This document shows positions 8,917 to 21,083 of a stretch of DNA of 64,000 nt, piece by piece (the stretch's first letter is position 1; each line of letters begins with the position of its first letter). This DNA comes from Octopus vulgaris (taxonomy: Eukaryota): NCBI GenBank assembly GCA_951406725.2, contig OX597822.1, positions 30,814,001-30,878,000 on the forward strand, given 5' to 3'. The notes under the pieces were generated by a model that saw nothing but the letters and a program-made list of their open reading frames with translations, had not been told where the DNA came from and made no database searches. Made by a program: the position numbers and the translations under genes.

Positions 8917-9255
8917 GAGTGAGCGAGCAGAGCATGCCATCAAAGTGACACTGGGGTAAAATATACGAAGCCCAGTATACCCATCATGACTACCCGTCTG
9001 ATAAGGGTACACCAGGCACATGCATCACAACCATATGTGCGCGACATGGTGATCTCATATCAAGATAAACAGCACATGACCTTGCAGGTGGAGCCCAGTT
9101 AGAATTTTCTTTCAGATCGAGTAACCCATCCCGCTCAAAAGGTCCCTGAATAAGGGTTGTTTAAGGACGTTGAACGAAACACCCATGTTTCCAGAGGTGA
9201 ATTATTCAAAACCCAAAGAATCCTTCTCAACACATGGCTATGATGCTTCCCCACT
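8917..9255 (-). mobile_element. Non-coding (TAA)n-targeted element, copy A (5'-truncated, 339 bp)
   Basis: Near-identical to the copies at 11042, 14576 and 15123. Begins GAGTGAG.GAGCAG on + directly after (TTA)n and is followed by (TTA)n. Confidence 0.9.
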
Positions 9256-9291
9256 TTATTATTATTATTATTATTATTATTATTATTATTA

Positions 9292-9395
9292 TTCAGTAGT
9301 TTTATTTTTATAGCGTGCTTTCACTTCCCTACCGAGCGCAGCCAGCTCTGTGTGCCTTGGGTATGTGCTGTGATTTGTTGTGATGCTATGATGGT
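9292..9395 (-). mobile_element. Short insert in (TAA)n, probably the 3' end of another Dong-related family
   Basis: Between (TTA)n tracts. Its terminus TTCAGTAGTTTTATTTT recurs as an ~18-bp insert in (TTA)n at ~14526-14543. Confidence 0.5.
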
Positions 9396-9434
9396 TATTA
9401 TTATTATTATTATTATTATTATTATTATAATTAT

Positions 9435-9853
9435 TTTGTTTCCTTCTTCAAATTTTCTTCCATTTCTCGCCGAGTGTTTTCCGTACACCTAGGGCAGAGA
9501 AGCTCGTCGTATACATTCCCTGGTTACACACGCAAATTCATAGGTAAAATATGTATTTAAAAAATTAATAGATAAATAAATTTATGAACGGATGTTGTTT
9601 TCACAGCGGTAGTGCTCTTCTCAGTACATGAGTCGTTCCAGTTAACACGATTTTTTGCACTTCCTGTAGGGATAGTAAGCCTGGTATCATTTTCAAATAG
9701 GTTTCAGTACCTTTTTTTCCCTAGAGATCCTACAATCACTGGTAATGTAGACGCCTTGAGATGCCACATTTTTTCAATTACTATTACAAGTCTTTATATT
9801 TACTGATCTTGTCAAATTCTTTCGCCGCTATATTGTGATCGCAAGGAATACTC
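9435..9853 (-). mobile_element. 5'-truncated R4/Dong family B fragment (endonuclease C-terminus and 3' UTR)
   Basis: Aligns by eye with 7820-8250 (GCCTTGAGATGCCACATTTT, TTGTCAAATTCTTTCGCCG, CCATTTCT.GCCGAGTGT). Flanked by (TTA)n. Confidence 0.85.
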
Positions 9854-9878
9854 TATTATTATTATCATTATTATTATT

Positions 9879-9970
9879 AAATTCTTTCAATTTTCTTTCA
9901 GTTTCTTGTCGAATACCTAGAGCAAAGCGATTCACTGTATACATTGGTAGGCCATTAAAATAAACGTAGA
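9879..9970 (-). mobile_element. R4/Dong family B 3' UTR-only insertion
   Basis: GTATACATTGGTAGGCCATTAAA is identical to the 7817 copy's UTR. Follows (TTA)n. Confidence 0.75.
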
Positions 9971-10399
9971 TTGTTCATTTGATAGAGAAAACATGAGAAG
10001 AAGCACATAGAAAATGGAAAAAGGAATAGAAAAACATGAAAAAGAAAACAAAGAAAATAAAGGAGAAACTGAAAGAAAATTCACAATAACAATGTTCTTC
10101 TCAAAGACTTGAAATTTAGGAGGAGAAGACTAGTCGATTACATCGTCTCCATTGTTCAACTGGTACTTAATTTGTCGAACCCGAAAGGATGAAAAGCAAA
10201 GTCGACTTCGGTGGAATTTGAACTCAGAACGTAAAGACGGACGAAAAGCCGCGGGCAAAATGCGATGTGAGATTTGGTCCGCGTTTACGTTCTGAGTTCG
10301 ATTTCGCTGAGGTCAACCTTTCCTGTCATCCTTTCGGGTCGATGATTGGTCTTATAATCTGATAGAAGTTATGCCTGTAGCGGGTTATCCAAAAGCTTT

Positions 10400-10830
10400 C
10401 AATAATCTTTCTGCTGCTCAAAATCCTTTTCATAATCTTTCCAGTTCTTCAGAGGCAAATTTCTGTAAAAATTCAACAGGATACTATATTTAAATATCCT
10501 TCAACCATTTGTCTATATTTCTACTTACAGTTCCTAATGTACCAATTATTAGTGGGACGACCTTTACAGTTGTACTCCAAATTTCTGCAATTTCAAATTT
10601 GAAGGGATTTCTTTAAAAAAAATTTCATCTTCTTTCTTTACAGTCCTGAAATCAAACGGACATGATGGTCCATTAATGAGCAGCATTGTTTTCCCTTGAC
10701 TATTAATGTTATGTCTGGTTTATTATTTTGTAACTTCTTATCCAAACACTAGGAAATCCCATAAAATGCCGTTCTTTGACTCAAGCACTCTTTCAATCTG
10801 ATCTTCATACGAAGTACCTCCACCTTCACA
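10400..10830 (-). mobile_element. Old R4/Dong-like RLE C-terminal fragment (further family)
   Basis: Minus-strand translation includes ILWDF, NKPDITL, VPLIIGTLGTVSRNIDKWLKDI and TGKIMKRILS. Confidence 0.7.
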
Positions 10831-10845
10831 TTCTTCTTATTATTA

Positions 10846-18100: not shown

Positions 18101-18252
18101 ACTGCCAAACAGTAGCCACCAATTCAACCACAGCAACGAGTCCAGCAATAGTAACGGCAGCAACGACAGTTCATTTGCAACGGCAACTGCAACATCAACA
18201 ACAGCGAGAGCAGCAGCAACAGTTGTAAAGTCAACTACAGCAGCAACAACAA

Positions 18253-18611
18253 GGAGGCGCAATGGCCCAGTGGTTAGGGCAGCGGACTCGCGGTCGGAGG
18301 ATCGCGGTTTCGATTCCCAGACCGGGCGTTGTGTGTGTGTTTATTCAGCGAAAACACCTAATGCTCCACGAGCCTCCATAGGGGGTGGGTGGCGATCCTT
18401 GCTGTATTCTTTCGTCACCCCTTTCTCTCACTCTTTCTTCCTATTTCTTGTCCCCGACTTCCTACGCAACCGCTGAGCCTGGATGCGCATTCATCCATCT
18501 GGCGATGCTCTCGGTGTCGGGGGTTGACCAGCTTTCTCTTCTGCGGGTCTTATGAATAGCAAAGGACCACGTTTCGGACTTCTGCCACTAATAGGACGAA
18601 GACCGCTTCGC
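18253..18611 (+). mobile_element. tRNA-derived SINE family R, tail type 3
   Basis: Same ~195-bp head (GGAGGCGCAATGGCCCAGTGG...), followed by an unrelated 3' part. Confidence 0.88.
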
Positions 18612-18874
18612 ACAACAAACAAGCACACAAACAGCAACGACAGAAACAATATCAGCCAAAGATAAAATGTATAAATAAATGCATCGAAAGGAACAGGAAG
18701 CTGCTGCATCGTCAAGAAATGCAGGAATAGCAACAACAACAACATTGATAGTGACCTCCAACTTAATAAAAACAACAAAAAAAGGGCACCACTGTAAACA
18801 GAAGTAACTTACAACAGTGCCGTCTTACAGCAAAATTCAAACAAGCGCATGCGTGCGCACAGACATACACACAT

Positions 18875-19140
18875 AATACATACATACATACATACATACA
18901 TACATACATACATACATACATACACACACACATACATACATACATACATACATACATACACACACACATACATACATACATGCATGCATACATACATACA
19001 TGCATGCATACATACATACATACATACATACATACATACATACATACATACATACATACATACATACATATATGCATACAAACATACATACATACACACA
19101 TACATACATGCACACATACATACATGCATACACACATACA
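18875..19140. repeat. (CATA)n microsatellite
   Basis: Directly visible; source of the MYVC/HTYI ORF artefacts. Confidence 0.98.
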
Positions 19141-19180
19141 TGTTCATGTAGGCACACGCGCACACGCACGGACATAAATT

Positions 19181-19370
19181 CATTTTAAGACCCACAAAGA
19201 TCAGAATTTATCTGCAGCTCTTGGTGGTCCAAACTGGATATGCAATCTATGTGGATGTCTTTTCAAATCATTGTCTGGTTTAAGAAGCCACATCAAATGC
19301 CATGATGGTTCTAAGGTGCAGCTATAGGAGGTGGTCCAACTCTGCATATGGAGTAGACAACCACCATGTA
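19181..19370 (+). mobile_element. 3' end of an RTE-like LINE with a canonical C2H2 finger
   Basis: In-frame HFKTH...WICNLCGCLFKSLSGLRSHIKCH...stop at 19325-19327, then a short hairpin-like UTR (GGTGGT..ACTC/GAGT..ACCACC) and (TA)n. Confidence 0.6.
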
Positions 19371-19952
19371 TATATATATATATATATATATATATATATA
19401 TATATATATATATATGTTGCTTTGGTCTTCACCGACCCATCACTTCTCATCATTTCCGCTTGAGTGGCCACGTCATGTGATGAAGGCTGCGTGAAGAATC
19501 TGCCAAAAGAGGCTTTCCAGCGTAGGTAATAGTGTAAACTAGAAATGTATGAGACCTGCCCTGACTAAAACTAGGAATTTCGATGAGGGAGGCAGAGAGT
19601 TTTATGAAAGACAACATACCCGCATCATCACTACCAATACAAGAGAATAAAACCAGAAAAACCCACAAACACACAATCAACTTTAGCAACAATCGCAAGA
19701 ACAAAATCATTATAAAAATCTAAATGAATAAAATGAAACAGGTGTATATAAAACTCCATCCACTTCGCAGTTCTAATAAAAAAAAGGAAAACCACTACGA
19801 CGAAGAGGGTGACGACGACCAACAACAATCCTGCACCCCCACAATAAAAACAACAACAACAACAACAACAACAAAAACCATAATAATAATAATAATAATA
19901 ATAATAATAATAATAATAATAATAATAATAATCTTTTCTATTATAGGCACAA

Positions 19953-20527
19953 CGCGTATATATAAGTAGACACGACGATGTTACCAGATATGTCCACTGG
20001 CTGTTGTGCGGTAAAGCAAACCTCGAGAGAACCGAACAAAGGTATGAACATGAGTCAAAGGGAGTAATAGAAAACGAACATTACCAAATACTCTGGGATT
20101 TTAACATGCGGTACGACCAAGTCATAGAGGCGAGACGACCAGATATCGTGCTCATCCATAGAGATGAAAAAAGAAGTAAAGATAACAGATGTTGCAATAC
20201 CAGGCGATTTGAGGGTGAAATGTAAGGAAACAGAGAAGATTGAGAAATACCAGTCACTGCGGGACGAGATAGGAAAGTTATGAGGCATGAGGGAAGTAAT
20301 GGTGATACCGGTGGTAACTGGAGCATTCGGAGCAGTTATCAAGGGCTTTGAAAAACATATTAAGAATATTGGAGCTGCTGTCAGGCTGGAGATGATCCAG
20401 AAGATGGCATTGTTGGGTCCAGCTCGCATTCTAAGGAGAGTATTGTCTCTTTGTGTTACTGGTGATTTGTTGTTGCCTACTTTCATGAATAATCGGTAAT
20501 TAAGAACTATCTGAGAGTATTTCAGAT
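19953..20527 (+). mobile_element. Old 5'-truncated R4/Dong-like RLE fragment
   Basis: RHDDVTRYVHW, ILWDFNM, ARRPDIVL, EKIEKY, IPVVTGAFG and ILRRVLS in broken frames. Preceded by (TAA)n on +. Confidence 0.88.
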
Positions 20528-20611
20528 TAACAACAAAAATAATAACAATAACAGCAACAGCAGCAGCAGCAACAGCAGCAGCAGTAACAACAACAACAGC
20601 AATAATAATAA

Positions 20612-21083
20612 TTGTCTTGGTATAAAAGATGGACTATAGCAAATATTCTGCTCAGTACCTCAGATTTCCTTGTCAGTTGTTTGACCTTAACCAGTTGAGC
20701 ATGTCCATTGGCGGCTGATGATATGTGCATCTCTGACCACGAAAGGAAGTAATGGGAGAGCATCATAGCCATGTCTTGAGAGGAATTCTTTAGAGTTTGA
20801 AGAATTCATCTGTGGAAACATGGGTGTTCCATTCAACATCCTTAAACCATTTGAGCAGGATGGGCTACTTGACCTGTAGAAAATTTTAACTGGGTTCCTG
20901 TTGCAAGGTTTATCTTGATATGAGATCTCCATGTCGTGCACATATGTTTGTGATGTATGTACCTTATCACATATGGTTGTGATGTATGTTGCACCCTTAT
21001 CAGACGTGTAGTCATGATAGGTATGCTGTTCTTCGTATATTTTACCCCAGTGTTAGTTCATTGCATGCACTGCTCTCTTACTC
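20612..21083 (+). mobile_element. Non-coding (TAA)n-targeted element, copy E (older, opposite orientation)
   Basis: Diverged reverse complement of copies A-D. Ends ...CTGCTCTCTTACTC-(AAT)n and is preceded by (AAT)n. Confidence 0.87.

Follow-up and report, generated by a model that had tools for sequence, protein, structure and literature searches.

Introduction

Short, non-autonomous partners of retrotransposons with a restriction-like endonuclease (RLE) are already known, and the template choice of RLE proteins such as R2, R4 and Dong decides what gets inserted at a fixed site. This report concerns an element of 557 nucleotides (nt) without an open reading frame (ORF), present in five copies in a 64,000-nt stretch of the Octopus vulgaris genome (GenBank assembly GCA_951406725.2, contig OX597822.1, positions 30,814,001 to 30,878,000 of the forward strand), hereafter the window. 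It is a real, abundant, TAA-specific non-autonomous retroelement that works like a short interspersed element (SINE) or a short internally deleted element (SIDE).

The closest described systems are found in Entamoeba. EhSINE1 (with EhLINE1), EdSINE1 and R4-N1_ED (with R4-1_ED) resemble the octopus element in having a length of 500–600 nt, no ORF, no identified small-RNA head and an R4-type partner (PMC2996970, PMC3747384). EhSINE1 and R4-N1_ED nevertheless share their 3′ end with their long interspersed element (LINE), over about 70 nt in EhSINE1, and are dispersed, EhSINE1 at T-rich sites (PMC2996970, PMC3747384). The octopus element, by contrast, contains no detectable Dong sequence, is microsatellite-specific and lives in an animal. 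The R2 SIDEs and R2/R1 hybrid SIDEs of Drosophila are likewise site-specific RLE parasites that lack a tRNA head and begin at a defined 5′ position; they are made of the ribozyme and 3′ untranslated region (UTR) of their helper, are rare and are confined to ribosomal DNA (PMC3414825), whereas no ribozyme or helper-derived end was found in the octopus element, which has tens of thousands of copies. In crocodilians, SINEU-3 is a target-specific SINE whose helper, Tx1-Mar, was also inferred from a shared target, but its head derives from small nuclear RNA (snRNA), its helper is of the Tx1 type and its target is a transposon (PMC4494074).

Dong itself, of the R4 lineage (Bombyx mori Dong, DongAg, DongBg), which targets (TAA)n (PMC3812793), shares target, polarity, tail and 5′-junction behavior with the element (PMC3812793, PMC3774820). 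Unlike the element, it is autonomous, and silkmoth Dong carries a ribozyme resembling that of hepatitis delta virus (HDV) (PMC3774820), which was undetected in the element. The initial annotation of the window held that short partners of RLE elements are rarely described. EhSINE1, R4-N1_ED and the R2 SIDEs are precedents. The SINE/LINE table of PMC3747384 gives R4-type partners for Entamoeba only. For octopus, the consulted part of a repeat annotation reports five Dong-R4 families with recent activity, along with 893 unclassified SINE families that are active, and does not pair them (PMC13282606). Octopus Dong is mentioned in PMC9115989, and the portion of PMC5786205 consulted does not mention Dong. 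Literature searches, whose scope lay outside Repbase, Dfam, the 2015 octopus genome paper and the Zenodo library of PMC13282606, returned no description of the family. It may already sit in repeat libraries as an unclassified SINE.

A discrete family inserted in TAA microsatellites

The element is a discrete, ORF-less, non-autonomous retroelement family of the non-LTR type (lacking long terminal repeats) and thus a SINE in the broad sense. Its coordinates are measured against L008, a young full-length copy of 557 nt elsewhere in the genome. A genome search yielded 2,661 first-look candidates; the 40 that were scored are about 99% identical, which indicates that a young subfamily exists. An unselected sample of 1.2 Mb, made up of 120 segments that were each 10 kb long and placed at round coordinates, contained 16 matches, amounting to 0.6% of bases and to an estimated genome copy number of about 37,000 (95% range 21,000–61,000). 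Copies are 79–98% identical to the majority sequence; ten of the 16 matches begin at nt 1, and 15 extend to the 3′ region. The family accounts for about 0.6% of the genome and probably contributes to nested TAA arrays. Its sequence is also present in sequencing runs labelled as five organisms.

The ends of the element are well defined. In a set of 66 matches not picked for length, a few of which are duplicates or fragments, the start falls at nt 1–3 in 29 and by nt 12 in 36; the others are scattered. The sharp 5′ peak near 555 nt that had been proposed as the mark of a discrete element is therefore seen genome-wide, with 557 nt as the unit. At 29 other top-scoring loci, which were chosen for full length, (AAT)n follows the 3′ end in every case; TAA-type repeats lie against the head in 27, and in the remaining two part of the head is duplicated, the duplicate in turn lying behind (TAA)n. 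Continuation upstream into an ORF was seen at 0/29 of these loci, in 0/16 unselected matches and in none of the other matches examined, so that copies running into an ORF for reverse transcriptase (RT) and RLE, which had been named as the outcome that would speak against a discrete element, did not appear. In four sequencing runs, at most 1% of 8,255–13,597 contigs per run extend from the last 138 nt into unlike sequence, which argues against an abundant LINE that shares the 3′ end of the element. The lack of an ORF is borne out as well: the longest stop-free frames are 49 amino acids (aa) in sense and 59 aa in antisense, and translation in all six frames, with X at stops, matched no Pfam family. 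Taken together, a fixed 3′ end, a repeat tail and variable 5′ truncation are hallmarks of target-primed reverse transcription. Any target site duplication is unreadable because both flanks are (TAA)n.

The preference for (TAA)n was assessed by counting copies with at least four AAT within the upstream 30 nt. This holds for 8/14 unselected copies away from stretch edges and for 49/69 other loci, which include the top matches. The background at random positions is 1.2%, and the 5′ ends of three abundant control SINEs gave 0/25, 2/81 and 0/8 (2/114 in total), so that the unselected copies differ from the controls with a Fisher p of 9e-8. An AAT tail is present in 12/13 unselected and 52/55 other copies that reach the 3′ end, and reversed polarity relative to (TAA)n occurs in 0/83 copies. 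Since the points at which truncated copies meet (TAA)n are spread over many positions, the upstream repeat is the target and not a part of the element. Most copies thus lie in (TAA)n, contrary to a scenario in which most would lie outside it.

One of the control SINEs merits a separate remark. The 5′ end of this abundant tRNA-like SINE (window 10839–11012 and many other loci) often adjoins (TTA)n, in 8/81 control rows, and such ends form the largest cluster among sequences before arrays; Dong or the element then sits in that run. Other octopus-type SINE copies, used as controls of target preference, occupy window positions 16402–16775, 17712–18102 and 18253–18447.

Dong as the likely helper

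Mobilization of the element in trans by a Dong (R4-type) RT-endonuclease is likely, with a probability of roughly 0.85. The partner is assigned from target, polarity and likeness of the 5′ junction, and not from shared sequence. The reading given in the initial annotation, a site-specific, non-tRNA parasite of Dong, is supported on these grounds, and the common polarity of the copies and neighboring Dong pieces holds in both nests of the window.

Dong is abundant in this genome, with 82,456 first-look candidates. The label is used on account of the RLE-type protein of family A (see below) and of the TAA target that Dong is described to have (PMC3812793), and it is to be read as a sequence-based assignment. 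Grouping of 85 Dong C-terminal matches gave 14 clusters, probably 10–13 families, most with (AAT)n tails. Family A, a candidate helper, has a stop-free frame of 1268 aa whose PDB matches are R2 proteins only, and its 5′ UTR of about 1 kb begins behind (TAA)n. Near full-length copies of families B and C were also located, at L293 (G000:C16:17404500-17410700) and L299.

The best independent link to a Dong partner is a feature of the 5′ junction that both share, namely tandem reiteration of the first bases, which adds support to the assignment. A junction was scored when a 12-mer taken right after the end of an (AAT)n array, from the first bases there, recurred within 300 nt. The raw rows gave 7/97 for Dong (six junctions), 3/62 for the element and 7/272 for others. 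Two of the others were element copies: copy B of the window was reassigned to the element, and L011, whose status was unclear, was dropped. The counts then became 4/63 for the element, 6/96 for Dong and 5/270 for others, three of these five being simple repeats. The Fisher p values are 0.07 and 0.04, or 0.013 and 0.005 when simple repeats are left out. The closest parallel to copy B is L101, a full-length Dong A in which the first 22 nt are repeated at least five times. Dong copies with tandem reiterations of 22–36 nt at the 5′ junction were noted at L101 near 8789, at L066 near 2277, and at L037, L054 and L083.

In the proposed mechanism, the Dong protein would nick (TAA)n, bind the 3′ end of the element RNA and prime reverse transcription there, and the 5′ reiterations would come from re-priming of synthesis at the 5′ end.

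A predicted 3′ hairpin as possible recognition handle

Dong 3′ UTRs with unrelated sequences share a stem-loop. Its lower stem is followed by an internal loop of the 3x1 type, in which YNA faces a single base, then by six base pairs and a pentaloop whose central base is G. The Dong protein may bind at this predicted structure. A strict descriptor of it matched 63/85 Dong UTRs and 4% of shuffles. In the element, the most stable local fold lies at nt 441–520 (z −3.1), and its hairpin can be drawn in the Dong layout if one bulge and another first pair are allowed. A covariance model derived from 13 Dong hairpins, with no element sequence, ranks this hairpin first of seven sites in the element. 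Among the variants of the hairpin, two common ones keep the pairing and one breaks an outer pair. The fold of the whole element is weakly better than that of shuffles (z −2.0), and in it the 3′ end is predicted to pair with nt ~222–245.

The resemblance of the modeled hairpin to the Dong stem-loop is a weak lead and not a result. The handle recognized by the enzyme would most likely be the hairpin 50–95 nt from the 3′ end together with the (UAA)n tail, at not quite even odds; otherwise it would be the tail alone or an unrecognized motif. It is doubtful, though far from negligible, that an animal element without a small-RNA head or a LINE tail spread by mimicking the Dong 3′ stem-loop in shape only. 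If true, shape mimicry could let several site-specific RT-endonucleases carry the element to TAA microsatellites, and R4-type enzymes would choose their templates by a small portable fold. An abundant passenger without sequence identity to its helper, combined with a hairpin conserved in about ten Dong families, offers a direct test of enzyme recognition.

Several observations weigh against a Dong helper as a whole. At the target, 6/14 unselected copies have no clear upstream AAT run; some of these six have GAT, AAC or GAA repeats (decayed triplets), while the sequence there is unique in two. Counts of reiterated junctions are small, and their rows were partly reassigned by eye. Local alignment of the 3′ end of the element to 13 Dong 3′ UTR representatives, an incomplete library, gave a best p of 0.06–0.09, which is not significant and agrees with the earlier remark that no identity to Dong 3′ UTRs is obvious. 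BLAST gave no match between the element and the 5′ regions of three Dong families (A, B and C). As for the hairpin, the strict descriptor missed the sense strand of the element, and only a descriptor adjusted after seeing the element matched it, in 48/58 element rows (many of them near-identical) and 6/13 family representatives; 0.4% of shuffles pass the adjusted form, or 21% without the loop rule. The Dong-only model scores the element hairpin weakly (6.7 bits, E 0.38; a family B hairpin itself scores 9.6 bits) and, over the 64 kb of the window, found no element copy at E 10. Across four runs, the hairpin showed no double change of the compensatory kind. Finally, raw RNA reads of a related species, of which 0.06–0.08% match the element in both orientations, show no discrete start or sharp ends; the strandedness of the library is not known, and these reads consequently say nothing on a discrete transcript.

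Origin of the element

The same mechanism could operate on an element with a different history. In this alternative, the element would be a SIDE in which the 5′ end of a Dong family, now rare or extinct, is fused to the 3′ end of that family, and its head and tail would be inherited rather than convergent. The R2 SIDEs provide a precedent (PMC3414825), and a supplement for a related species has 51 Dong-R4 families (PMC13282606), versus about 13 sampled here. In the hairpin region, 17–18/26 letters agree with Dong family G in an in-register alignment. However, the match to families G and J is not significant (p 0.06–0.5 by copy), the three families compared at the 5′ region (A, B and C) are unrelated to the element there, and contigs that diverge around the last 138 nt are as scarce as stated above. 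A SIDE origin is accordingly regarded as unlikely, yet it deserves consideration.

A tRNA origin appears less probable. The head would then be a heavily decayed tRNA and the element an ordinary SINE2, transcribed by RNA polymerase III (Pol III), with a Dong-type tail. By eye, an A-box-like stretch lies at nt 8–16 in tRNA register, and the best alignment to the tRNAs of the genome itself is to tRNA-Lys (p 0.025). This value is the best of 37 comparisons and hence not significant; the set is without tRNA-Met, for which two patterns gave 0 hits. Moreover, no B-box core is present, the sense strand contains three T4 runs, and Rfam returned 0 matches at E 10. The earlier statement that the element has no tRNA A/B-box head is thus upheld, apart from the A-box-like stretch. 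Heads of 7SL, 5S or snRNA origin, as in SINE1, SINE3 and SINEU, likewise gave 0 Rfam matches at E 10 in an element copy. As far as could be tested, the element appears to lack the defining sequence features of tRNA SINEs and SIDEs.

How the 5′ end is made

The element's 5′ end may be set by transcription initiation or by RNA cleavage. Reiterated and duplicated head units start with A(A)UG, and their junctions vary within the young subfamily. Because the repeated heads begin in this way, the RNA probably starts at that A. HDV-type cleavage usually leaves a 5′ G. A putative promoter is therefore somewhat favored over HDV-type cleavage as the source of the 5′ end.

It is improbable that a self-cleaving RNA frees the 5′ end from read-through transcripts, as happens in silkmoth Dong and the R2 SIDEs. 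B. mori Dong does self-cleave from a (UAA)n co-transcript via an HDV-like ribozyme (PMC3774820), a stable hairpin is predicted at element nt 21–100 (z −2.4), and the element RNA is abundant in a related species. Against this, neither the scan of the nest nor that of a single copy gave an Rfam ribozyme match, an HDV descriptor applied with no positive control found nothing in 3/3 element copies or in the inner 620 nt of the 5′ UTR of Dong A, and the reiterated heads do not begin with G. The self-cleaving structure suggested for the 5′ end in the initial annotation is consequently unsupported. In the first 400 nt of the Dong A 5′ UTR, a descriptor pass over all loci gave no HDV match, with no scan aimed at that part.

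The 5′ end of Dong A (L240–L250) contains GGACGT words near the start of its 5′ UTR. These words, which we take to be similar to a downstream promoter element, suggest an internal RNA polymerase II promoter in full-length Dong A, as far as sequence can indicate. In the element, a TATA-like word at nt 90–97 would start RNA near nt 120; it was rejected as the main source of copies, as only 1/66 matches starts near that position. A search of sequencing runs listed no RNA run among those that hold the element. In related-species RNA data, hundreds of reads per run correspond to L008:1490-1628, with the first 139 nt duplicated, and probably stem from one well-expressed locus.

Less probable sources of mobility

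A LINE of a clade other than Dong, with its own preference for (TAA)n, could mobilize the element. Element and Dong have no sequence in common, and microsatellite targeting is known in other LINE clades (PMC3812793, PMC4494074). However, among 251 sequences that precede (AAT)n arrays in the unselected sample, the assignable recurring families are the element, Dong 3′ ends and SINE ends only, with a few two-member clusters left over, and the 5′ reiteration of the element matches that of Dong. Such a helper is therefore quite improbable, and a Dong enzyme remains the preferred one.

It is highly improbable that the element moves as DNA and derives from a miniature inverted-repeat transposable element (MITE) or a similar transposon. 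The idea arises from a 484-bp MITE (L110–L128, L281–L292, e.g. L112:1310-1800), first reached through loose ends of RNA reads on the element, whose core equals element nt ~110–273 at 159/164 letters; 12/12 matches of its left arm continue into the element-like core. The element, however, has no terminal inverted repeats and does have polar tails and 5′ truncations. Of the five mismatches in the core, two reflect CpG decay in the MITE, so it was probably the MITE that acquired part of the element. The MITE itself has terminal inverted repeats, mostly TTA/TAA flanks and 2,400–3,300 first-look candidates, and a six-frame Pfam scan of it gave nothing meaningful.

That the element is merely a long 3′ UTR of Dong or another LINE, as its constant proximity to Dong-type arrays might suggest, is refuted for the copies examined by the absence of any entry into an ORF at the 29 and 16 loci above and by heads that adjoin (TAA)n, and almost no weight is left to it.

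Layout of the window

All five copies described in the initial annotation were recovered at their positions and on their strands (Table 1), and (AAT)n follows the 3′ end in four of the five, as had been noted, the exception being copy D. Copies B and C had been said to reach nearly the same 5′ end; copy B is complete, but the first 11 nt are missing from copy C. A single A links the 5′ end of copy C to the 3′ end of copy D.

Table 1. Element copies, Dong pieces and associated features in the window (element positions in nt of L008).
Feature	Position	Strand	Remarks
Copy A	8917–9255	−	nt 220–557; 5′-truncated; (TAA)n on both flanks
Predicted 3′ hairpin in copy A	8969–9011	−	nt ~463–505; 3x1 internal loop, pentaloop; also predicted in other copies
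Copy B	11042–11598	−	nt 1–557; full length; sole window copy with complete head
Reiteration of copy B head	11599–11676	−	four extra tandem units of the first 19–20 nt at the 5′ junction
(TAA)n array	11675–11755	−	between Dong family A 3′ end and copy B 5′ end
Copy C	14576–15121	−	nt 12–557; young subfamily; 99% identity to top genome matches
Copy D	15123–15591	−	nt 89–557; no (AAT)n tail
Duplication at copy D junction	15592–15663	−	two 36-nt units of nt 210–245 at the 5′ junction
Copy E	20612–21083	+	nt 81–557; (AAT)4 tail; old, 78% identity to young copy, with indels
Dong family C 3′ fragment	7815–8851 (approximate limits)	−	same nest and polarity as copy A
Short 3′ fragments (two) of Dong families B and C2	9292–9853	−	(TAA)n array between them; same polarity
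Dong family A copy, 5′-truncated	11756–14339	−	RT and C-terminal endonuclease region, 3′ UTR; family is candidate helper
Old Dong 3′ fragment, family H	19932–20540 (approximate limits)	+	upstream of copy E; same polarity
Dong 3′ UTR stem-loops (predicted)	7857–7888, 9335–9366, 9468–9499, 11795–11826, 20451–20482		pairs vary among families

A unit of 33–37 nt just upstream of the 3′ hairpin is present as a tandem duplicate in some copies (window 20940–20990; L011:2063-2226). The hairpin region of the element itself looks like an old duplicate of this adjacent unit.

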